A stretch of 63,980 nucleotides of DNA, counting the filler, from Reclinomonas americana ATCC 50394 (lineage: Eukaryota), in the NCBI GenBank assembly GCA_048213135.1. It is 6 parts of 3 records of this genome, joined end to end, with 100 filler letters (N's around TTAATTAATTAA, not from the genome) between each part and the next. Parts side by side here need not be neighbours in the genome. Positions count along the whole stretch, not along the records: positions 8,949 to 20,090 come from PS015097.1; 5 more parts are not named here. One strand, 5' to 3'. Under the pieces are notes generated by a model, which was not told the origin of the DNA, searched no databases, and saw nothing but the letters and a program-made list of their open reading frames with translations. Both the position numbers and the translations under genes were made by a program. Of the stretch, positions 8,905 to 55,906 are shown in pieces (position 1 is the stretch's first letter; each line of letters begins with the position of its first letter).

Positions 8905-9081
8905 NNNNNNNNNNNNNNNNNNNNNNNNNNNNNNNNNNNNNNNNNNNNCCTTTTACCCTTTTACCCTTCCTTCGTTGTCGTTCCTTCCTACCTACGTCGA
9001 CCACCTACCTCCCTTTCCCTTCCGTCCGTCCTACGTACGTACTACTACTCGTCTCCTTCCTACCCCACCCACCTACTACTA

Positions 9082-9122
<41 letters not shown>

Positions 9123-9149
9123 CCCCCTCTCCCTCCCACACATACACAC

Positions 9150-9294
9150 CCTTGTGCTGCTCCACCAGCGCCGTCAGGTTGAACACCACCCCAAAAGCCG
9201 ACACCCAGCAATCATACTCAGCATTGTGCTCGCCCACCTCCGCCTTCAGCCAGTAACGCGCAGGAGCGTCCTCGCGTGGAAACACGACCGTCAT
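9150..9294 (-). CDS. CYB5D1: Cytochrome b5 domain-containing protein 1-like, first exon
   Basis: RYWLKAEVGEHNAEYDCWVSAFGVVFNLTALVEQHKG matches the recalled CYB5D1 N-terminal pattern (RYFTPxEVAxHNxxxDLWVSxLGxVYDLTxL..xYKG); ends at a G|GTGTGT donor. Confidence 0.75.
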
Positions 9295-9364
9295 TTTCTT
9301 TCAATCAACGGCAGCAAATCCATCAATGACTCATCATCATTGTGGTGTTAATCAGTCAATCAGC

Positions 9365-12300
9365 ATGGAGGACGAGGAAGCCGCGCGCTCTCCTTCTCCT
9401 CCTTCCTCTCCTCTTCCTCCTTCTTCTCCTCCCGCTGCAGCAGCTGTGCATCACGGGGTGGAAGCAGGAGGCACTGTGGAGAGCACAGCAGTGGAGCGCG
9501 ATGAGTTCATGCGGAGCAATGTGGCACCGGCCGATGTCGATGGCAAGTCGCCGCCTTCTGCCTCCTCGCCCACTGTAGTCAGTGGCGCACAAGAGGTCGA
9601 GGATATCGTGCATGGTGAGCGTGCATTTGTATTTGTTCGATATCTCTCTCTCTTTGCGTGTGTGTCACGCTCCTCTCTCTCTCTCTGCAGTGATTCCCGA
9701 GTCTGCGGCGGCGCCTGCGGTGAATGGCAAGAAAACAAACAGTGTCTCGAATGGTGCTAGTGGAGGCAAGCGAGGGCGAATGACACCGCAGCAGACCTTG
9801 GAGGCCAATGGAGGCAGCAGCAGTTTGTCTCGGAAGCAATCGGCAGTGTCGGGCAAGCTCAAGTCGAGTGCGCGGTCGCGTGTCAGTGGTGCGTTGTGGG
9901 CGTTGTCGTCGTCTCCATCACTGCGCTTCTGACCAGGGTGTTTGTGTCTATGCAGAGGCACCGTCGTCGTCGTTGCGGCGATCGTCGACGCGGAAACTGA
10001 GCAGTCGGTCGCCGTCGCCACAACCGAGCCCGTATCATGCTCCGCTCTTGTCGGCGGACGTGGCCTCGGATGCACCCAGTTGCGCGCCTCTGCTCACTGG
10101 GGGGAGGGAAAGAGTCGCTCCTCTGCGGATCATGTTGGTGACGATTGTTTTTGTTTCTTTGCAGGCACACGCAGCAGCTTCCGCTCTCGTCCGTCGCATC
10201 AGCAGGATGCGATGCCGCAGGTGGGATCGACTGTCGACTTGCAGAAGCTCACTGTGTTTGAGGGCGACGACCAGCGCTTTGACGCCGAATTCGGTGAGTT
10301 CAGGCTTTCCGCATCTAAACAGCCACACCTCCTCCCTCCTCCTCCTCAACCTTCTCCATTTTCTTGTCTTCCTCCTCCACCATCCTCTTCTTCCTTCCTT
10401 CCTCCTCTTCTTACTCGCTTCCTTCTCCTTGCTCCTCCTCCTCCTTCCTCCTCTTCTTCCTTCCTCCCTCTTCTCCTTTGTCTTCTATCTTCTCCCTTTC
10501 TTCTCCTCTTCCTCCTCCTCCTCCTCTTCCTTTGCCTTCTTCTGCTTCTTCTTCCTCCTTCTTATCTTCTCCTCACCTTCTTGTTCTTCCTCCTCCACCA
10601 TCCTCTTCTTCCTTCCTCCCTCTTCTTCCTTCCTTCCTCCTCTTCCTCTTCCTTCCTCTCCTCCTCCTCCTCCCCCTCTCCGCTTCTCACTTTCCCCCCC
10701 GCGCTTGCAGTTCGCGAATCCGTGCGACGCGGTGTGCAGCTGGCGCACGAAGTCGAGACTCTGCACAACCTCCTGCGGCATCGTGATCAGGAGTACCAAC
10801 GCACGGAGCGCGAGTGGGAGGCCACGTTTGCGTCGCTGCGAGCGGAACTAAACGAGGCGCGTGACTACCACCGCAAGTACAACCGTCTCGTCAAGGAGAT
10901 GAACGAGGCCAAGCTCGACATGGCACAGATGCGCAAGGAGCTCGGCATCTACGCCCGCGACACGGACGATGCGGGATCGGTGCGCTTGCAACTGATGCGC
11001 ACGACGCAGGAGCTCGACAAGAAGGAGCGGCAACTCATGTCGAACAAGGCGGTGCGTGGAAATGACAGGGAAAGGGCCACTGGTGGTGTTTCTTGTCGCT
11101 GGAGACACTGATCACTACTGTGTGTGGTGTTCTGCACAGCGCTCTGCCAAGCAGCTCAGCGACGCCAGAACAGAAGTGGAGGGGGCTCTGCTAAAGGTCG
11201 AATCGCAGCGCCGAGAAATTCAGCAGCTTCGCGAGGCCGTGCATACTCGCGACTTGCAGCTGCAAGACTTGGCTCGGGAGCGTGACGACGCCATTCTCGA
11301 GTGCCAAGCCTTGGTGGTGCGCCAGCGACAGACGCAGCAAGAATACGATGATTTGGTGCGCGTTTTTTTTTTTTTGCGGCTCATTCCTCACGAGTGACTC
11401 ACTGATGGCGGTGCTGCAGGTGGAGACTACCAAGCTCGCACTGCGCCGCATGAGGGAAGAACGCACCGCTCTCCAGCGACGGATTCAAACGCTGGAGGAG
11501 GACAAGCACGATCTGCAGAAGCAAATCCCCTCCACGGTCGGCGTGTACTTGAACCAGCGTGACTTGCGCAAGTTTGCCAGCCGATCAGTTTCGCTCAGCA
11601 CCACCATTATCACCGTTTTCTTCTCTCGGCAACTCATTGTACGTGTGTTCGACAGCCGCCACCACCTGCCGGGAGCTCTGCAGCCAATAGCCGTCGTGGC
11701 CGCTCCAATCGCGCTTCTCCGTCGCCCTCCAAGAGCTCGGACCGACCGCCGTCGCGTGATCCACCGCGAGACGTGTGGTCCGATTCATTGGACGCTCCGC
11801 CTCCGTCCACCGGCAGTCAGCGACCGACCGCCCCCAGCAGCGGCGTGCCATCCCAATTGCCCGACATTCGTCGCCGGCCCTCTCAACAGCAGCAGCAGTC
11901 GCCAACTCGCGGCGGCAAGAAATCAGTCGCCGCTTCGTCTCCGCTGGCACGCTCGCCGTCCACCTCACAACGCGAGGGGATTGCACGCTCCCCGAGCCAG
12001 TCGCGCATGCTGCCATCGCAGTCGTCGCCGAAACGTGCCGCTGCTGCCAACGGTGGTGGCTTGTCGCCGTCGTCCGCCGCTGCCGCATCGTCGCCATCGG
12101 CCGGCTCCCCGTCTGCCGCACAGCGCCGCACTTCGCCACCGCGAACCGGCAACAACGTGCCATCGGCCGAGGTACTGCATGCGGGCAAGCGTCCGAGCGT
12201 CGCCAACGCCACCTTGGTGTCACCAAAGGCCTCGAAACCATCGTCACCTGCGCAACCGATTCGGCCGCCCAGCGGCAAGAAGGCGCCACTTGGGCCCATT

Positions 12301-12816
12301 GGACAAGGATCGCCTGCAGGCGCGACGTCTGCCTCCCCAACGGCGGCCACCGACGCCGCCGCCGCTGCCGCTGCTGCCGCCAGCCCCACAGTCGCCGCCG
12401 CCGCTGCCGATGTCGACAAGGCGCATGACACCGCCTTTTCTGCGCCGACCCCTACTGCCGCCGTCCCTTCTGAGCCGGAACCGTCTCCGGCGGCTCACAT
12501 CTCCTCACCACCCTCCCGTGTTGCGTCACCACCCGCGTCATCTATTGTGTCACCACCAAAGACCCCGAAGGCGTCGGCTGCGCTGTCGCCGCCCAAGACA
12601 CCGACAGCTTCATCATCGTCACATGCTGGACTCGAGGAGGAGAATGCACAGGCACCAGCGGAGAGTGTGGAAGACGCGTCGTCAACGGCACCTCCACCCC
12701 TATCATCACCTCCACCACCACCAGCGGCAGCAGCAGCAGCTGAGGAGGGGGAAGTCGCGGTGGGCGAGGAAGTGGGTGAATTGGAGGAGGAGAAGGTGGT
12801 GGACGGTGGCGACTGA
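9365..12816 (+). CDS. Unknown multi-exon protein: central coiled coil, long Ser/Pro/Ala-rich tail, acidic end
   Basis: Spliceable GT-AG exons; coiled-coil segment VRESVRRGVQLAHEVETLHNLLRHRDQEYQRTEREWE; final exon ends EEEKVVDGGD*. Confidence 0.7.
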
Positions 12817-12895
12817 GTGTTGCGGAGTGTTTGAAAAAATGTATCTTGTATTACGACGTGATATTCTATGTGAGTGTGTGCGTGTACCACCACTA

Positions 12896-15800
12896 TTACT
12901 GCAAGTCACTGGGGCAGTGCAGCAGTTCTCGAATGGCCATGGTGGCGTAGCACGATGGGGCGAGGTTGAAAGACACGCGGAGAGCAGTGTACCGTCCATC
13001 TGTGCGAGCCAGATGAGAGAAGAAGAAAAACAACACAGGCGCCAGTGTTTTACAGAAACAAACCAGGCACGGATTGCGGTGGCGGCCGTCCCTCCAGCAC
13101 GTCCATGTCCGAGTGCGACAACTGCAGCGTCGGGTCATCGTACTGCACAAAGTCCCTGATCGTGCAGCGTTCAGTGACATCACATGCACGGCACTCGTCA
13201 CACGACCGGAACGTACCACGACATGTCGGTGGGCTTGGCCACCACCGGTCGGTAGCCACCAACGAGGCTGAATTCGCTACGGAAGCAAAAAAAACCATAC
13301 ATGGATAATTAGGGGGTGGCACACATGGACTGCAGGACTGCTGACAATACGCAACACCAAGTTGGTGCGGAAGAGCTCCAGCGTGACACCGTCACGTGCC
13401 AGGCGATCGACATACATGGCACCGATCTCGTTCTCCGGGAGGCGAATGTTGAAGCCGGGGAACGGCAGCACCACGTCCTCCAGCGTGTACTGATCGACAG
13501 TCTCGGCGGTCAACACAGTTACCTCAACAGCAGGCGCGGCGCCACCACTGCCGCTGCCGCTTGCTCCACTACTGTCTTCCTCATCGGCCGCTGCCGCTGC
13601 TGTTGCGACCGTTACCTCGGAAGCTTCCACGCCCTCCTCGGCGGCCAGCGTGGCCAGATCGTCGGCATCGGCGGCACTGCCACGCGACAAGACAAGGTCG
13701 CCGATCTACGAGTCGACAGTGAGCACCTCGACAACCAGCTGATCTCGGCAACAAAACGCGGACGCACCACTGGTCGGCGGCCAAATCGCTCGATGCGCTC
13801 GCTGCACATCTCGTTGAAGACCAGACTCTGGTACGCGTGCACAAAGATCATGCGTGTGCTGCGCATAATCTGTCCTTGCCCATCCCCACATTAGACGAGT
13901 AGAGAGACATGTGCATCACATCACCAGCGACGTAACTCGTGCGACTGCGTTCTGGTAGCCACGCGGCATTTGTTGCAGCGACGCCATGACAGCACGCTCG
14001 GAGATCATCTTTCGCGGCATCAACTTCATGGCTGGCGAAGGGCACATACAATGAGTGTTACGCGTTGCCAGCAAAACGAGGCGACGTACCCGTGTCCAGA
14101 TCGCCTCTGGCAAAAGCGTGACGAGCCGCCACTGCGTCGGCCACCACATCTGAACATGGATGGCATCACAGGTGAGGGAGCGGTGAGAACACTGCGATTC
14201 ACCACGGAGGCGCCGCGCACCGACTTGTCGAGGAGCCATCAGGAGTTCCACCGCCTGCTGCCAGTCGTGCTTGATCATGGCCAAGCCAATGGTGGCGTTG
14301 TTGACACTCGATGATCCGAATCTGGTCGACACGTCAGTGGAGAGAGTGCACGTACGACGGCTGCAAAACACATTGTGCAACCTCTGCAGTCCGTAGTAAT
14401 TGATAAAACCGTGCTCGGCGAGAGCGCGCAGGTTTGTCTCCACTTGCTCGTGCGGCGATTCGAGAGCACTGCAGCAGCAACAGTGAGCTTGCGGTACCCC
14501 TGCCCACACATCGATTGTCGCCCGCACCGTACAATGAGCTGGAAGCGATTGCCGCCGAGTTCGCCGAGTCGGATTTCACGATCGACAAATCTGCGCGTGC
14601 GCATGAGTGTGGCGATGTGCAATTGGAGCAAAGAGCGTGACTGTCGGTGGCGCAACTTGAAGTTTCCGACATGGAGCCAATTGAATCGCTCGGCAGCACG
14701 CAGTACGCGGCTGGGCCGGAGATGCATGGCGCGGACCTCCTGCACCGTGATACCGCGCTTATCCTTGGTGCCTGCGTACGACAAGTTCTTGGGCTGTATG
14801 CTGCGCGCATACGCGGAGAGATGAGTAACGTGTGCGATGCAGCAGATCGATTTTTCTCTCTGTCGAGTCGAACCTCAGTGCGCTCGCCAACATGGACACA
14901 GCTGCGGCCGTGTCGGTGTTGACTTTGAGCAGCCGGAAAGAGAGAAAGCGTGGCACACTCGCCGGCCACCTGTCGCGTGAGCGGTAATCGAGTGATGCGC
15001 CGGCGGCTGCACAGCGAGAGGTGAGAGTGGCTTCTCACAAGGCACATTCCAATAAGAGTACACACGCACCCTCTTCGTCCCGGCCACCTCTGCCGCCTCC
15101 GCGACCGCGTCCACGGCCACCACCACCACGGCCGCCACGGCCGCCACCACCAGCGCGTAGCGCAGCAGCCTTGGCCTGCACTCGCACAGCGCGGTCATCG
15201 CCGTCGACATGTGTGTCCGACACAAAGGCCGAGTGCCACTGTGTGCGACACGGACGAGTCAGCAGATGCACAGCAGATCGTAGTGCAACGACGAGCACCT
15301 TCTTGATGTGCCCGTGCACAGCGCTTCGCTTGTCTTTCGACGCCTCAGCCTGTGGCACCGGGGTGAGCAGCGGGTGAGGAAAATACAAAAAAAGCGGTCG
15401 CACTCGACGCACCGCAAACACAAAAATGTTGCTTGTACTCTCCGAGTCCCGGAGGAAGGATGCGAAACGCTGCGCCTCTTCGGCGCCCACAAGCTCCTGC
15501 AATTCGCCAGTCGCCGCTTCCGTGGAGTCTCCGGCGGCAGCCGGAACGGCTTCTCGCACGACAAACGCCGACTGCATGCCACCGATCCACGAATGAAAAA
15601 CAGAGAGCGCAGGACGAGCGATGAGTGTAGCACAAGACAGACCTCGTCGTAGCTATTGTCGGTGAGATGGAGTACGGTGCCGTCAAGTGCAATCTCGTTG
15701 ACCAGAAAGTCGGAGAATGTGAAGAACCAGTTGTCAAGGGCGAGCACAACAAACGAGTGGGCAACAACAGGAAAGAAAACACAAAGGATATCTGTCCTTG

Positions 15801-16099
15801 AGGAGGCCGTTCATGGGCGCGGCCTCTGGGTTGAGGAAGGCACGAATTCCACACGGGTCTTCGCCGAGCGGGTGCGTGCGACGGCGCGATGCCAGTGGCC
15901 CCACATCATTGGACTGAGCCAGCTGTGATGCAGAAGTCAGGAAGGAAAAATACACCATACGAGGGCTGCGGCGGTGTCCATGTACCTCGGAGTCGACAGC
16001 GGCTGCTGTGCGCTTGCGCGGTGGCTGCTCGACTTCGTCGTCCTCGGCAGCGGCACTGTCACGCTCTCGTTTTCTGCTGCTGCTGCCATCGACGTCCAT
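12896..16099 (-). CDS. PUS7: Pseudouridine synthase, TruD family
   Basis: Motifs GLLKDR/FSDFLVNEI, SYAGTKDKRGITVQ (catalytic Asp), LGELGGNRF, GFINYYGLQR/FG, FVHAYQSLVFN, DVVLPFPG, SCYATMAIRELL, joined by many short introns. Confidence 0.95.
15719..15791 (-). other. U12-type (minor spliceosome) AT-AC intron, 73 nt, in PUS7
   Basis: Minus strand: gacag|ATATCCTTTG...CCCTTGAC(14 nt ending AC)|attctcc. Removal restores KDR-FSDFLVNEI in frame. Confidence 0.93.
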
Positions 16100-16187
16100 C
16101 GCAGACTGATAACACCAATACTCATCAGCTACACTGCAGAAAAAAGAAGAAAAGAACAGAAAGAGATAGAGTGTGTGTACGTGCGCG

Positions 16188-17315
16188 CTACTCCACTGTC
16201 ATGCACTCGTGCAGCAGGCGCTCGACCAGGTTGAGCGGCAGGCCTTGAACCGAATCAATGGCGCCGTCGATTTCGCGCACGTACTCGCTCATTCGCGGAT
16301 GTTCGACAATGAAGCCGCCAGCAGTCGTCAGGAACTCGGGCAGATGCGCCTGCAGGGAGAGAGAGAGAGGTCAGCGGAAAAGAGATGCAAACAAACAACA
16401 AATGCTGCGCACCAGTTCCTGAATTCGGTCTTCCGGAATTTCTGACCAGTGCACCGTGGCCACGTCGACATCCTTGCAAATCTTGCCTGCTCTCCAGCGT
16501 CAGCAGCAGCAGCAGCAGCAAAAGAGAGGAAAGAAAAAAGTGGCAAAAGCATACAAGCACTGGGGCTTCCCAAGTGGTCCCCCACCCTAGTACTGACCCA
16601 GCTGAACGCGGCTTAACTTCACAGATCGGACGGGATGTGGTGTTTTCCGCGTCATGTGGCCGTATGCGACTGCTTGAGCGAAAGAGTGCACGGGGGGATT
16701 GCAGGAAGAGTGCAGGAAGAGTGCAGGAAAGAGAGCACAAATAGCCCACTCTGCGTGCCACACACACACACACACCAGTCTTGAGGTTGGAGGCGACCAC
16801 CGCCGAGAATGTTTGCACCGACGAGTTGGAGTAGGAGCTGCAACATGCGACAGTGAGCACACACACAACGCACAACAGCACAGAACACACACACACCGAA
16901 TGAACTCGACGGCCTCCTCCACGCTCTCGGGCTTCTCGCGCACCACGCCATTGTAGACAGTGACCTGGTCGCACGTGAGCAGCACCCAAGTGTCGGCCGA
17001 GTGCATGTACTTGTCGGCGTCGGCGGCCACCACCGTGCTCATGAGTCGCTCCCGCTTCGCCGAGGCAATCGTCAGCGGCAGCACATGCGGGTCGGCATTC
17101 TGGCGCAGCGCCGGGTCCTTCTCGTCAATGTTGGGGTCCATGGTCTCGTAGGTGCCTGAAAAGCGTGTGTCAGAGAGTGTGCATGCATGCATGTGCGTGT
17201 GCGTGTGTGAATGCACACCGGCGCCAAGCAGCTGGTTGAGAATGCTTTGCCGGAACTTGCTGGTGGAGCCGAGAATGATCTTGGCGCCATGGAAGGTGAC
17301 GAGAGAGGATGCCAT
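16188..17315 (-). CDS. maf: Maf-family nucleotide pyrophosphatase
   Basis: KIILGSTSKFRQSIL, PNIDEK, LLTCDQV..NGVVREKPES, AGGFIVEHP, DSVQGLP; five exons. Confidence 0.92.
16549..16667 (-). rRNA. 5S rRNA: 5S rRNA gene (119 nt), inside Maf intron 3
   Basis: Minus strand GCATACGGCCACATGACGCGGAAAACACCACATCCCGTCCGATCTGTGAAGTTAAGCCGCGTTCAGCTGGGTCAGTACTAGGGTGGGGGACCACTTGGGAAGCCCCAGTGCTTGTATGC, then TTTT. Conserved CCCGTCCGATC, AAGTTAAGC and AGTACT; helices I, II, IV and V pair. Confidence 0.95.
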
Positions 17316-17412
17316 TGGCGCAGCGCAGAGTTTTTATGAAATTGGTGAGTGCCACACAGGACGCGGCGTGCGCACTCTGCCTCTGCTGCCGCTGCTGCTC
17401 GCGAAGCGATGC

Positions 17413-17860
17413 TCACTTGCGCTTGTCCGAGTCCTTGACGGTCTGCGCGGGGGGCGCCAGCACCGCAAAGATGACGGCGAAGATCGTGCACAGAGCGCCC
17501 CACGCAATGTTCACTGCAAGACGACGGTGTGAGACACACGAAAGACAGCGACGTGAAGAGAAACAAGGCGCAACTCTGCGGGTCAAACATATTGGCATTG
17601 AAGAAGCAGTACGCCTGGGCGGCGGCGCCAATCAGCATTGAGCTGGCGGCAGCATGAGCAAAGGCCTGCGCAATTTGGTTCACCATGCACACAGTTAGTG
17701 GCACTTGCACAGAGCGAGCGTGAGAGGCATATGGAGGAACACTACGTGCGTGGGCTTGACGGAGAGAGGAGATCTAGGGGGAAGAAGACGTGCGCGGAGA
17801 ATTAGGTATCTCTCTCTTGCTCTTGCTTCTGTCGCTCTCCATTGCTGCACCAGCGCGCAC

Positions 17861-17896
<36 letters not shown>

Positions 17897-18016
17897 TGTG
17901 TGTGTACGTGCTACTCTTAATTCTACTTTGTGCGCGTATGTATGTCAAGCCTCACCCGAGTGAGCGTAGCAGTGCAGAAAATGCCGCTGAGCATGATGCA
18001 GAGCACTCCAAGAGAC

Positions 18017-18077
<61 letters not shown>

Positions 18078-18379
18078 CAAGTCAGCAAGAATATGCACTG
18101 AAGAGAGACGGCATTCGACACGCAACTGAGTGAGAGCGAGCGCCGCGGTGACTTGCTCATCGGAAGCTCCCTCCGCGAGCAGCTTTGGCATGTGCACTGC
18201 CAGTGTGTGTGCGTGAGGGGGAGGGGGAGGGGGGAGGGTGGCAATTGCAAACCCTCTCTCAAATTCACACACAGCACCACGCAACATTCGACCACCGTAC
18301 GCGGTGCCGCGATGAAGAACACGCCAGTGGCGGTGTAGTAGGTGGAGAGGAAGAGCAGGAACACGCGACCAAAGCCCAT
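17413..18379 (-). CDS. Small ~4-TM membrane protein, paralogue 1
   Basis: Spliced MGFGRVFLLFLSTYYTATGVFFIAAPRTVVE/LHMPKLL.../SLGVLCIMLSGIF.../AFAHAAASSMLIG.../MNIAWGALCTIFAVIFAVLAPPAQTVKDSDKRK*; homologous to the adjacent gene. Confidence 0.75.
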
Positions 18380-18773
18380 GATGGATGTCAAGGAAAAATC
18401 GATCGATTGATGATGCCACAGGACAGAGTTTCGGGAGATGCGGGCACAAGCTCGATCCTGTGTTCTACAGGCACTCCCTGCCGCATCACCTTCCCGCGAA
18501 GTGCACTCGACAATGCATCAAATGTAAGAGCGACTTCACGACATCATGACAACACGCCTTTCCGAAGCCAGGCGACCACAGAAGCAGGTGCATGACGACC
18601 TCTGCCTTGAGGAACGAAGGTGAGGTTCCGGATTTGCGAGCAGGAGAAGGTACAGCGCGATCGATATCTCGCTCCTCCGAAGCTGAGCCAGCTGGCGAAT
18701 CCACGAGGCAAGGCAAGTCCTCATCAGAGGAGAGCTCCGCGAATTCGTGCAAGAGCGTTCCGCAGTCGTTTTA

Positions 18774-19449
18774 CTACTTGTGCTTGTCGGCATCCGGCAC
18801 CCGCCTGGACGGTGGTGCCAGCAGGAGCATCATGGTGGCACTCAGCACGAGCGACGCAGACCACGCCATGCCCGCTGTGGGTGGACACAAACACTTGACA
18901 AAGCATGCAGCACAACAACAACAAAACATGCAGATGCACACCTGTCGTGTTCACAGTGGCGGCGTTCTTGAGCGTGGAGACCGCCAGCGCAGCAGCGAGA
19001 AGCATCAGCGAGACAGCACCAGCGCGTGCAAAAGGCTGCGGAACAACACACACACACATCAGACAGCATCTCGCACACAAGCGCATACACAGAACACGCG
19101 TAACTCGTGAGGGTGTCGCCGACCAGAGCACCGCCGAGACAAAGAACAACACCACGCCAATCGATCTGCCAGTCATCGATCAATTCACGCGCATTTGCTC
19201 TTCTTTTTTCTGCGTTCCTCACGCAACTGCACCAAGGCAACAGCACCACGAATCTGCTCACTCACTGCAGTCGCGTCCACCAGCCGCGGCATGTGCACTT
19301 CATGCGCAGAGAAGTGTGAGACAACAAGGCATAGTAATGTGGAGCAAATAACAGACGCAACAGTCCAGCATGAACCGCGGTGCAAACACGCACAGTGCGC
19401 CCACGCAAGTGAAGGCCGTGGAGAGCAAGAGGAGGAACGCCCGAGACAT
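18774..19449 (-). CDS. Small ~4-TM membrane protein, paralogue 2
   Basis: MSRAFLLLLSTAFTCVGALCVFAPRFMLD/LHMPRLV.../SIGVVLFFVSAVLWSATPSR/PFARAGAVSLMLL.../AGMAWSASLVLSATMMLLLAPPSRRVPDADKHK*; same four intron positions as paralogue 1. Confidence 0.75.
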
Positions 19450-20004
19450 AGTGATTGCAAGTCAATTGGCGTGCAATTTCGTTGTTTTTTGGCCTTTTTT
19501 GTGTGTTTTGTGTTTGTGAGCATAGTATGAGCACTCTCGATGAGACCGAGGCCATGAATGGTGTGTGTGGCGCGCATATGTGTGAGACAGAGAGGCAGAG
19601 AGAGCGCGCAGTGGCGGCGTTCTTTTTTTGTGTGTGCGTGTGAGTGCCATCTCGCTCGTAACGATTTTTTTCGTTTGTGTGTGTCTGTGTGCGCGTGTGT
19701 GTGTGTCCACTGTCTGGCTCTTTGAATGTGTGCGTGTGTGTGTGCGTGCGCGCGCTTCTTGTTGTGTGCACGATCACGCGTGCCTGTGTTGTTTGGGCAT
19801 GTCACAGTCGACTTGTCGCGCTCTCGCTCCTTCTTTGTCGTGTGCGTTTGTGTGTGTGTGTGTCTTTGTTGTGAGTTGCCTCTCATGGTGGTGGTTCCAT
19901 GATCCTCATCTGCGAATGTTCGCATGAGCGTGTGCAAGAGACAGACAGACGCGCGTCGCGACGACGACGCGTGTCACACGTGTAGACAGAACACCTTGTG
20001 GCGT

Positions 20005-20090
<86 letters not shown>

Positions 20091-20271
20091 NNNNNNNNNN
20101 NNNNNNNNNNNNNNNNNNNNNNNNNNNNNNNNNNTTAATTAATTAANNNNNNNNNNNNNNNNNNNNNNNNNNNNNNNNNNNNNNNNNNNNTCCCTCTTGT
20201 GATGCTCTTTGTAACGATCTTGAGTCAGTGACGTGCTTCCATTTCTTTCTCTCACGATTGTTCTTCTGCAG

Positions 20272-23200
20272 GCTGCCGCTGGAGCTGGAATGTGTATCCG
20301 GCTTCACGCGTGGAGAGCCAGCGACTGGTGAGTGGAAAAGAAGATGACACACACACACATAGAGGGAGAGAGAGAGAGAGAGCTTCCTCTACGCGCCTTT
20401 CCCCTTCAATCCCCTTTCCTCACCAAACCCACGATCACCAGGTTGTCCCCTTGGCGTGCCTGTACACGCCCAAGAAGGAGATTCCGAACCTGCCGGCGCT
20501 GCCGTATGGTGTGTCGCCCTCCAAGCTGTTTCTCGCCAGTTGTTCCAGTCGTGCTCACACAGCTTTGAATCACAGAGCCTGTGTGCTGCCGCAGCTGCGC
20601 CAGCAAGCTGTCGCCCTACTGGTGCGTGTTGTCGGACCGACTCGCAGCTGCGCATGGTGCCTGACCCTCTCTCACGAACACAGCCGCGTGGAACTGGCCT
20701 CCAAGACGTGGACGTGCCCCTTCTGCACCACTCGCAACCAGTTCCCGCCGCACTATGGTGAGTGCTTCCCGTGCATGCACCTGTTGCCAAAACGGAAGCT
20801 GACCACCGCCATCGTGCACAGCGAACATCTCAGAGACGCAGCTGCCGGCGGAGCTGTTCCCGCAGTACACCACCATTGAGTACACGCTGCAGACGAGCCC
20901 GCAGGTGACAAGATTTGTTTTTTATTTTCGCTCTCGGATGCCCTATCTCACCCCTCCCTCTCCCTTCCCTTTCGACCCCACAGCCACCGGTTGTGCTCTT
21001 TGTGATCGACCTGTGCATGCCGGAGGAGGAGCTGAAGGCCGTGAAGGACTCGATCCTGCAGTCGGTCAACCTGCTGCCGCCGCACTTTTTGGTCGGCCTC
21101 ATCACATTCGGCACGTTTATCAACGTGTATGAGCTCTCGTACACCGAGTGCTTCAAGTCGTACTGCTTCCGTGGCAACCAGGAGTTTACGGCGGAGCAGC
21201 TGCAGGAGACGCTGCAGTTGCTGGCTGCACCGGCGCACGGACTGGCCATTCCCAACCGGTGAGCGAGTGCCTTTCTCCTTTCTCCCTCTCCCCTCCTCCC
21301 CTCCTCCACCCTCCTCTCTCTCTCTCTTCTCTAAATTTTCCCTCTCGCAGATTTGTGCAACCGTGGAACGCTCCCGACGTCGATGTGACTCTGTCGTCGA
21401 TTCTGGAGGAGTTGTCGCCCGACCCGTGGCCGGTGAAGCACAACAACCGTGCTCACCGCTGCACTGGTGCCGCGCTGTCGCTGGCCATTAACCTGCTGGA
21501 GCTGACTTGCGTCGGCTCGGGCGGCAAGATCATGCTGTTCCTGGGCGGCCCGTGCACGGCTGGACCCGGCACTGTGGTTGGTGAGTGCACTATCATCATC
21601 ATCATCACATCGGCGCGCGCCATTTGCACCTTTCACTCACTCACGCATTCTTGGGGGCAGGCATTCCGTTCACGGAGCAGATGCGTTCGTACAACGACAT
21701 CAACAAGGGTCGTGCGCAGTACATGGCCAAGGCCACCAAGTACTACGAGGGCCTGGCGGAGAAGTGCATTCGCAACTGCCACTCGGTGGACGTGTACTCG
21801 GCCAGTTTCGATCAGGTCGGTCTGCTCGAGCTGCGCGATCTCGTGCACAACTCTGGCGGCTACATGTACACCACTGAGGAGTTCAACTCGGACTGCTTCC
21901 GCAAGGTACGCCTCACGACGATCACTGCAAATGGACGGGCGTGTGTATCACTCATAATTGTGCGCAGACCATGGAGCGCGTGTTTGCGCAAAACGCCCAG
22001 TACGAGCTGACCATGGGCTTCAACGGCCTGGTGGAGGTGCAGACGAGCTCCGAGTGGAAGATCTCCGGCGCCATTGGCCCGTGCGTCAGCATGCGCAAGG
22101 CGTCGCCGAGTGTCGGCGACTTGGAGATTGGCGAGGGCAAGACGTGTGCGTGGCGCGTGTGCGGGCTCGCCCAAGACACCACGCTGGGCATCTATTTTGA
22201 AGTCGTCAGCCAGGTTGGTCTCTTGGCGAGCATCGTGTCCCTGTTTCGCGATACTAATTACCCTTCCCTTGCCCTTTTCTTCCTCCACTGCAGCACAATG
22301 CCCCGCTGCCACCCGACGCGCAGCGTTTCATCCAGTTCAGCACCGTGTACCAGCACTCATCGGGCCAGCGTCGCCTGCGCGTGACCACCTTGGCCTACCG
22401 CTGGGGCTCCACCGACCACATGGCGGACCTGGTGACTGGATTTGACCAGTACGCCTCGATTGCGCTCATGGCGCGCATGGCGGTGGAGAAGACGAAGCAC
22501 GAGCCGACCATGGACATTTTGCGCTGGCTCGATCGCAACCTCATTCGTCTCATGGCGCGCGTGGCCGAGTACGAGAAGGATGCGCCGCAGACGTTCCGCT
22601 TGTCGCCCATGTTCCTGCTGTTCCCGCAGTTCATGTTCCACTTGCGCCGCTCGCCGTTCCTCCAAGTGTTCAACCACTCGCCCGACGAGACCACCTTCCA
22701 CCGTTGCATCTTGATGCGCGAGAACGCCCGCAACACGGCCATGATGATCCAGCCGCACCTGCGCAAGTTCTCGTTCAAGGGTCCGCCCGAGTCGGTGCCG
22801 CTCGACGCCGCCTCGATTGAGCACGACGCCATTTTGCTCCTCGACACCTACTTCCACGTGGTGGTCTTCCACGGCGATGTGCGTAGCAGTTGAAAGTGGC
22901 TTTCACTTGCTCTCGTGCGGCGAGCTGACCTGAGTTGTTTACCTTTCTCTGTTTGTCGCACAACAGACGATTGCGCAGTGGTTCAAGGAGAAGCTGCAGG
23001 ATCGGCCCGAGTACGAGCACTTCCGCAAGCTGCTGGGTCACCCGGAGGCCGAGGGCATGAAGCTGCTGGAGAACCGCTTCCCGCGCCCGCGCTTTGTGAC
23101 ATGCGCGCAAGGGTCGAGCCAGGCCCGTCTCCTGACGTCCAAGCTCAACCCCAGCATCACGCACAAGAACATGGGCGGCGTGCAGTCGGGAGCCGGCGAG

Positions 23201-23272
23201 GTCATCATGACGGATGATGTGTCGCTGCAGGTGTTTATGGAGCGCCTGGTGCAGCTGGCGGTGCAGCAGTAG
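20272..23272 (+). CDS. SEC23: COPII coat subunit Sec23 (5' end missing)
   Basis: RWSWNVYP, zinc finger CRSC...WTCPFC..RNQFPPHY, LFVIDLC, RCTGAAL, FLGGPCTAGPG, GFDQYAS, FPQFMFHLRRSPFLQVFN, GSSQARLL, TDDVSLQVFM. Confidence 0.97.
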
Positions 23273-23921
23273 AGGAGCACCCCTTGGGTGTGTGTGCGAC
23301 GGCGGCGAAATACAGTAAGATGTGGCGAGTCCATTAAACAAAAGAGAAGAAGCGAATGACGATGATGGCGATGTACGCGATCATGAGGTTCACTAAAATT
23401 GGGGTTGGTTGCTGTAAAGATGCGAAGGAAGGAAGGAGTGGGAGAGAAAGAGAGAAGGACCGGGAAGCAGGCACAGTCGACAGGGTCACAGCAAATTTCG
23501 TGTCGACGGCCGCACTTCCGAAGCGAGGAGACCAAAGGAGGAGAGAATCAACAGCAACGGGGACAGGGCACACAGGTAGGTAGGTAATCATAATGAGACT
23601 AGGGGAATAGCCACGTGGTCGTGGCAAGACAATGGCGAGAGCATTGCAGGCCGAGAAGGGGCGCGCCAGCAGAACGCCAAGTCTTGCACTCGACACACGA
23701 AAGCGGTGATGAGGGCAGCAAAGGCCGGCAACAAATCAAACACGCAAGACACGGAGAAAACAATGAAAGAAATCGCACACGAATGAGACAACAAGCGGCA
23801 GGAAGAAAAATGTCATGGAAAACAATGAGGGGAAACAGTGCTAGCGGATGAAGAGAAAATGAGGACACACGAGAAAAATAGACATGGTGCTAGTAGAAAA
23901 TGGGAAGGAAGGGAGGTGGTG

Positions 23922-25039
23922 TCAGTGGATTGAGGCGCGGTACGACGCCACCAGCGACTGCACAATGCGGTTCGGCACCAGCGTCGCGTCCGTCAGCGGC
24001 TCACGCGTCACTGGAGAAACTTGGTTCGACGACAGCCTATCACGAGAAACAACAAAGTCAGAAGTCAAGCGAGAATATGAAAAGGCCACGACAATGCACG
24101 CAACCACTCAGTAATGGCGGAGCGCTCGTACGTGTTGCCATCCTGTGCCACCACCGGGTCCTCGAACAGCAAGTTACTGATTGGACAGACGAGTGCGCGT
24201 GGAGGCTCGCTCGATTTGTGCGGCGCGAACCACAGCCCGCCTGCATGCCAACAAGCCGCGCGGTGTTAGCATCATCACAGAGAGAGGGAGAGAGAGAGAG
24301 CAGAGAGGAAAAGGGGGGCGCACCATCACGAGCGCCTGCCTCATCGGGCAACAACAGTTCGGCGGCAAATAACATGATCTTGCGCCGATCGCCAAACACG
24401 TGGATGCCGAGGTCTTTGAGATCGCCGTCGCTAAGCGTCTTCAAGATGCGCACATCATCAATGCCATTGGCCTTGAAGAGATCCTGGTAGCGATCGAGGC
24501 GACACGAACGAAGCCAACGAGACACTTCGTTCTGTGACTCGCCGGCATTGGGGACGGCTGCCGACGCGGTCCCACCGGCGGCACCACTGCCTGGCGCCGT
24601 CGACAAGCCGCTGCCGAGGGTCATCGCAGAGGGCGTGCCAAAGAACAGGCTGCTGCCCTGCTCCGAGTCGGAGCCAAAATGTTCAAACTACACAACAGAC
24701 AACATCAGGTGAGACGACTCAACCCCTCGTCCTTCTCGCACACACATGCGCCCACGTACCAACGACGGTGCCACAGACTCGCGGACCGAATGGCCGTTGG
24801 AGAGGCCGCCGGTGGCGTCGAACAGTGAGAACTGACGGAACGCCTCCTCAAAGTCCAACGAGTCGCCGAGGCTGGCGGGCGCTGGCGCAGGGCGCGGCAC
24901 CACAGGCGAGTTGACGGCCGAACCCATGCCATTTGACGCCAACAGGCCCAAGGTCGTCTGCGGCGGCGAGCCCGCGCTGCCCATGGTGGTCAGCGGCGAG
25001 GCAGACGGGTCGACCACTGTCGGCGGTGGTTGCTGCTGC

Positions 25040-34836: not shown

Positions 34837-37829
<2,993 letters not shown>

Positions 37830-53935: not shown

Positions 53936-55906
<1,971 letters not shown>

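Follow-up and report, generated by a model that had tools for sequence, protein, structure and literature searches.

An intact 5S rRNA gene in the sense orientation within a predicted intron of a Maf-like gene in Reclinomonas americana

A full-length, structurally intact 5S rRNA gene with no visible decay is found in sense orientation within a Maf-like gene of Reclinomonas americana ATCC 50394, inside what appears to be the third intron of that gene. It was studied in a stretch of 63,980 nucleotides, filler included, referred to below as the window. Judged from its sequence, it is probably a bona fide nuclear 5S gene, whose parts are ordinary and whose place is unusual. The most likely arrangement, which we consider probable though far from certain, is that of an autonomous Pol III unit that Pol II would read through and that the spliceosome would discard, because the conserved core of the gene is kept and its terminator is placed as in other 5S genes. 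The features of the locus are collected in Table 1.

Table 1. Features of the 5S rRNA gene, its predicted host intron and the Maf-like gene model (positions in the window)
Feature	Position	Strand	Details
5S rRNA gene, full length	16548-16667	(-)	RF00001, 103.2 bits, E 1.7e-21; 29/29 consensus pairs standard
Pol III terminator-like T runs	16534-16548	(-)	T4 16548-16545, T6 16539-16534
Four copies of the 12-nt motif STGCWCTCTTYC	16680-16738	(-)	nearest copy at -24 to -13 from the 5S start
(GT)8.5 microsatellite, 5' end of intron 3	16759-16775	(-)	
(CTG)6.7 microsatellite, 3' part of intron 3	16501-16520	(-)	
CTGAC, branch-point-like	16499-16503	(-)	A 13 nt before the 3' splice site
Maf exon 1 (predicted)	17219-17315	(-)	ATG at 17315-17313; Pfam Maf positions 1-18; spliced model aligns
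Maf intron 1 (predicted)	17156-17218	(-)	63 nt, GT..AG, CTGAC before AG
Maf exon 2 (predicted)	16897-17155	(-)	Pfam Maf 29.0 bits (cut-off 27), positions 22-88
Maf intron 2 (predicted)	16838-16896	(-)	59 nt, GT..AG, CTCAC
Maf exon 3 (predicted)	16776-16837	(-)	ends ..NLKT plus the first base of a Gly codon
Maf intron 3 (predicted)	16487-16775	(-)	289 nt, phase 1, GT..AG; 5S at intron positions 109-228
Maf exon 4 (predicted)	16413-16486	(-)	last two bases of the Gly codon, then KICKDVDVATVHW..
Maf intron 4 (predicted)	16350-16412	(-)	63 nt, GT..AG, CTGAC
Maf exon 5 (predicted)	16188-16349	(-)	Pfam Maf 29.0 bits, positions 144-186; stop TAG 16190-16188

The identity of the gene is established by a cmscan search of the whole window against Rfam 15, in which the match extends over the entire model (positions 1-120 of 120), is not truncated and scores far above the gathering score of 38. 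It is the sole match at gathering level in the 63,980 bases, and a laxer scan of positions 9000-24000 (E<=1) adds merely two sub-threshold matches elsewhere, both at chance level. The first-pass annotation had described an intact, solitary 5S sequence of 119 nt followed by TTTT. This is the same object as the Rfam match, since the first T is position 120 in the Rfam count. The word 'intact' stands, on the strength of the full-length RF00001 match and the standard pairing of its helices, while 'solitary' holds only within the window.

Comparators were drawn from a metagenome collection, as environmental 5S loci that carry an exact 21-nt stretch of the window gene; 36 such loci were obtained, and an exact 47-nt 5S pattern occurs at none in the same collection. 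A 5S-like sequence is present in 35 of the 36 (blastn). The best full match to the window gene, in locus L014, reaches 81% over 107 nt, and 17 loci are 85.7% identical to it over 84 nt. Rfam was run on 20 of the 36 loci and finds a 5S match in 19 of them. Among the 16 environmental matches that are uncut by a contig end, 15 score between 93.6 and 115 bits and one scores 54.6; the window gene falls inside the range of these 15 environmental eukaryotic 5S genes.

As a side observation, the 17 loci sharing the identical 84-nt 5S match (among L004-L036) belong to one GC-rich (about 60-65%) environmental eukaryote or group with many dispersed 5S copies, whose flanks are shared in part and which have a TATA-like box around position -30.

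The fold of the RNA was examined in an alignment of the window gene with ten environmental genes, for which RNAalifold gives a consensus of 29 pairs in helices II-V. All of them are standard in the window gene. Compared with the majority pair of the ten comparators, the window gene differs on both sides at six pairs and on one side at a single pair (G-C to G-U), and no pair is broken. The compensatory changes are located in helices II, III and V, outside the stretch used for selecting comparators; the invariance of helix IV arises by construction, because the comparators were required to be identical to the window gene in alignment columns 75-95. Helix II pairs as UGACGCGG/CCGCGUUCA, and the pairing of helices II, IV and V that had been claimed earlier is recovered both in the cmscan alignment and in the consensus fold. 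In helix I, eight of nine pairs are standard in the cmscan alignment read by eye, with the innermost C.C flagged, and the three-way junction with helices I-V is kept by standard pairs apart from this C.C. The minimum free energy of the single sequence is no more stable than that of shuffled sequences (z -1.14), which is usual for 5S and uninformative. In the 11 aligned genes, positions from about 45 to 57 and from about 74 to 101 vary little or not at all, columns 75-95 being fixed by the selection of comparators. The A box, intermediate element and C box of a putative internal control region would be expected at the positions known from Xenopus work.

Intactness would be equal in a copy that has only recently been silenced or duplicated, and this speaks against reading the locus as an active Pol III unit. 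A rival explanation is therefore that of a silent passenger, i.e. a recent duplicate or an epigenetically repressed gene yielding little or no 5S rRNA, with the supply coming from other loci (an array, rDNA-linked or dispersed copies) and with intactness reflecting youth or gene conversion. We hold this account to be possible but rather doubtful. The compensatory nature of the differences, the lack of any one-sided break, an intact terminator and a Rfam score in the environmental range all count against it, with no decay to be seen in any of them. Two other aspects of the locus, namely its upstream region and its position inside a presumably active Pol II unit, are in its favor and are considered below.

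The host is predicted, from profile and homologue matches, to be a Maf-like gene of the nucleotide pyrophosphatase family with a housekeeping role. Matches to PF02545 (Maf) on exons 1, 2 and 5 are colinear with the profile, that of exon 1 (15.3 bits) lying below the cut-off of 27. Exons 3 and 4 (20 and 24 amino acids) have no Pfam match when taken alone, and both align to homologues within the spliced model. This model joins 17315-17219, 17155-16897, 16837-16776, 16486-16413 and 16349-16191 into a protein of 217 amino acids, and scores 162.4 bits as one domain against P0122, compared with a best score of 54.6 bits for exon 2 alone. With exon 2 as the query, an exhaustive HMMER search of representatives retrieves 81 library proteins at E<=0.001; an earlier exon 2 search among longer proteins had given 56 candidates, none of them at E<=0.001. 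The six best Maf homologue clusters comprise two named 'septum formation protein', three that are nameless and one with an MMETSP transcript label.

The interval from 16775 to 16487 has the properties expected of a U2-type spliceosomal intron, and is predicted to be one. Its signals read GTGTGT...CTGAC-N11-AG, and a stretch rich in T and C follows the 5S gene; all four Maf introns carry CTGAC (CTCAC in intron 2) 10-20 nt before the AG. The joint between exons 3 and 4, at residues 139/140 (..NLKTG/KICKDVDVATVHW..), is gap-free and conserved in all seven displayed alignments, which represent six Maf homologues (P0157, with two domains, P0122, P0125, P0137, P0140 and P0152). Given this gap-free alignment over the joint, a normal Maf protein can be made only if the 289 nt are removed by splicing. 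The first-pass annotation is upheld in its description of the host: an intron of 289 nt, flanked by exons that join in frame as NLKTG/KICKDVD in agreement with homologues, and holding the 5S gene on its sense strand, with 16548-16667 lying within 16487-16775 and both on the (-) strand. Its figure of ~55-90 nt for most introns holds within the Maf gene, whose other three introns measure 63, 59 and 63 nt.

A protein-coding reading of the interval was considered and rejected, as the ORFs 16313-16744 (+) and 16255-17124 (-) have no Pfam match. Intron 1 has no in-frame stop and a length that is a multiple of 3, so that its retention would keep the frame open and add 21 residues. No such 21-residue insertion is present at this site in the aligned Maf homologues.

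Could the arrangement be an artefact, either of an assembly mis-join or of an interval that is not an intron and separates, for example, two partial Maf genes? The assembly is a draft, the window contains 16 N runs, and repeated 5S sequences can be mis-joined by assemblers. We hold an artefact of either kind to be very improbable. The region from 8949 to 20090 has no N run, so the locus is one contiguous piece. The flanks also make a mis-join implausible, as they follow directly on each other within one gene: they encode colinear, in-frame segments of a single Maf protein that align to homologues without a gap, and the splice signals between them match those of the gene's other introns.

The 3' end of the 5S gene bears on the polymerase that would transcribe it. 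The first base of the T4 run is the last position of the 5S gene, the T6 run begins 5 nt after T4, and a further T4 lies 3' of the gene at 16523-16520 (-). The 120-nt gene itself has no run of four or more T (sequence read). A run of at least four T that starts within 5 nt of the 3' end is found in 16 of 16 5S genes, comprising the window gene and 15 comparators. These T runs are weaker evidence here than they would be in a spacer, because they also form part of the pyrimidine tract of the intron. With this reservation, the combination of T4 and T6 favors transcription by Pol III over processing from the intron.

Processing from the intron is the basis of another explanation, according to which the 5S rRNA, or a share of it, would be freed from the spliced Pol II intron by debranching and exonucleolytic trimming, in the manner of a snoRNA, with the Maf promoter driving its production. 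The sense orientation inside an intron would suit such a route, as would the lack of a recognisable upstream Pol III element, and a precedent for processed 5S exists in the dicistronic tRNA-5S genes of Yarrowia lipolytica (PMC2566860). We nevertheless judge it improbable. A terminator-like T4 placed exactly at the mature 3' end, with T6 behind it, is what other 5S genes have; the demand for 5S rRNA would hardly be covered by the transcription of a housekeeping Maf gene; and the literature searched offers no example of a nuclear 5S rRNA made by Pol II. In a milder version of the idea, which the first-pass annotation also raised as a possibility, this compact genome might house its 5S genes in introns as a rule.

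Upstream of the gene, inspection by eye of the 50 nt that precede it reveals no TATA-like box, unlike several dispersed comparator 5S genes, in which an A/T-rich box of this kind is seen about 25-30 nt upstream. An upstream promoter element that the lineage might need is thus not found, which is a point in favor of the silent passenger as well. The four copies of STGCWCTCTTYC in this region may represent a lineage-specific upstream element or a plain minisatellite; in its strict form, the 12-nt motif occurs nowhere else in the window.

The flanks were also inspected for traces of mobility. Neither direct repeats (target-site duplications) nor inverted repeats were found around the 5S gene, and it is followed by T runs and the (CTG)n tract instead of an A-rich tail; a retro-copy is unsupported for these reasons. 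A 5S-derived SINE or a retroposed pseudogene is not supported either, on the same observations together with the full length and undecayed state of the gene. An introner-like or repeat-family origin of the intron was likewise discarded, since only its microsatellite parts recur in the window and its unique parts do not.

To our knowledge, the nuclear 5S genes studied all belong to type 1 of the Pol III genes and contain an internal control region. This region is part of the conserved 5S sequence and is recognised by TFIIIA and TFIIIC. Taking the autonomous Pol III unit as the working explanation, an intact nuclear 5S copy would have come to lie, in sense orientation, in intron 3 of the Maf gene. 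Its internal control region, inside the conserved 5S sequence, would be the target of TFIIIA and TFIIIC, and Pol III would start at the first base of the gene and stop at T4, or at T6 behind it. Pol II, while transcribing the Maf gene, would pass through the T runs, and the spliceosome would discard the entire 289-nt intron from the Maf pre-mRNA. The two polymerases would thereby share DNA and presumably hinder each other to some extent.

The environmental 5S genes most like the window copy occupy conventional settings. In L014 (498-2324), the 5S gene is upstream of the start of the SSU rRNA gene with a tRNA between them, and in L005 (1-2095) it is downstream of the end of the LSU rRNA gene. 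It lies beside U6 in L025 (177-1211) and beside two tRNA genes in L020 (1646-2094), all as assigned by Rfam. In L019, it adjoins an aldo-keto reductase ORF, so that L019 and L020 are examples of 5S beside ordinary genes. A Maf match is found by tblastn in none of the 36 loci. Pfam searches of 81 of the 330 ORFs of at least 80 amino acids in these loci give three matches, to a sulfatase, an aldo-keto reductase and a sub-threshold TSP1_spondin, each to one side of the 5S gene. No intronic placement is shown by the 81 scanned ORFs, most of which are unassignable. As similar environmental 5S genes are found in conventional settings (rDNA-linked, beside U6 or beside tRNAs), conventional loci may also exist in the genome of R. 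americana, and this again supports the possibility of a silent passenger.

It is well known that 5S genes turn up at very varied genomic addresses, being linked to the rDNA spacer, SL RNA, U snRNA or tRNA genes. In Diplonema, for example, they form part of SL RNA-5S-U2 repeats (PMC10161547). The 5S gene of R. americana differs from such linked genes in that it has no RNA gene family as a partner in the window, where ARAGORN detects no tRNA gene and Rfam gives no other match; its partner is the intron of a single-copy protein gene, versus multigene families elsewhere. Dispersed 5S genes offer another parallel. Those of Yarrowia lipolytica are scattered over the genome (PMC2566860; PMC2911113), and in Schizosaccharomyces species they number about a hundred, of which some lie at centromeres (PMC10085805). 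The window copy resembles these as a single unit among protein-coding genes with a T-run terminator, and departs from them in being intronic and in sense orientation, whereas the yeast copies are described as intergenic, centromeric or tRNA-fused.

Pol III units inside Pol II introns are also on record. A MIR SINE in intron 1 of Polr3e is occupied by Pol III and lowers the expression of its host (PMC5358760), and in Arabidopsis, tRNA-Pro clusters inside introns of protein-coding genes are silenced, the expressed copies being mostly intergenic (PMC7544208). The Arabidopsis case lends weight to the silent passenger, the window gene being likewise inside a presumably active Pol II unit. The common trait with these intronic tRNA genes and the Polr3e MIR is a short Pol III unit in a Pol II intron, for which interference is expected. 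The difference is one of promoter and direction: tRNA genes and SINEs have type 2 promoters and the Polr3e MIR is antisense, while the 5S gene is of type 1 and in sense orientation.

Intron-encoded snoRNAs have no promoter or terminator of their own and are trimmed from the lariat. The 5S gene shares with them its nature of a small structured RNA, in sense orientation, in the intron of a housekeeping gene, and is distinguished from them by the Pol III-type terminator at its 3' end. Dispersed 5S genes, RNA-linked 5S genes and Pol III units in Pol II introns are all established. A 5S rRNA gene inside the intron of a protein-coding gene is not described in the literature searched, a search that lay mostly outside subscription journals. 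The present locus is a bona fide 5S gene at an address known for other Pol III genes, and not a new kind of system.

The surroundings of the Maf gene offer an indication of how the placement arose. An upstream open frame, identified by reading of the sequence, ends 97 nt before the Maf ATG (17316-17415), and the next ATG-led open frame on the same strand starts at 16099, 88 nt past the Maf stop (16100-16187). Spacers of 97 and 88 nt between putative open frames on the same strand imply very dense packing or overlapping UTRs. With spacers so short, a 5S copy on the move would find introns no less accessible than spacers. A neutral origin of the intronic placement is the simplest reading of this local spacing: dispersed 5S copies would come to lie in introns where, as here, spacers are short.

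Beyond its annotation, the locus would be of interest in several respects. If active, it would be a natural example of a type 1 Pol III gene that is transcribed within a Pol II unit of ~1.1 kb and in the same direction, and would offer a compact system for the study of polymerase interference and of how splicing in a gene with short introns is affected by a stable RNA fold of 120 nt. It would also add to the 5S arrangements on record in protists, whose range is commonly taken as evidence that these genes wander neutrally. Should many 5S or other Pol III genes prove to be intronic genome-wide, this would inform how gene-dense nuclear genomes fit in their small RNA genes. A Pol II-derived 5S rRNA, for its part, would mean a snoRNA-like route for the rRNA that otherwise defines the type 1 product of Pol III. 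As it stands, one locus known from sequence is an annotation-level curiosity.

Several minor observations concern the remainder of the window, which carries exons of Sec23, TruD-like and FAD/NAD-reductase genes according to Pfam. Downstream of the Maf gene, in the region 13916-16099 (-), the ORF 13916-14575 has a Pfam match to TruD (tRNA pseudouridine synthase D). A Maf-type house-cleaning pyrophosphatase, a pseudouridine synthase and an internal 5S gene may together form a small RNA-metabolism neighborhood, or they may be assembled by coincidence. The Sec23 exons at 20232-22893 (+) have best matches that are only 54-62% identical among 5.8 billion proteins; those that carry a name are spread over very different eukaryotic groups (insects, red algae, a haptophyte and a cryptomonad relative), with no close relative in the collection. 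Paired gaps of 44 N with 12 bases between them recur through the window, filler included. Long (GT)n/(CA)n microsatellites are frequent, e.g. at 18020-18074, 35640-35727 and 54824-54906, and several introns in the window begin with GTGTGT.
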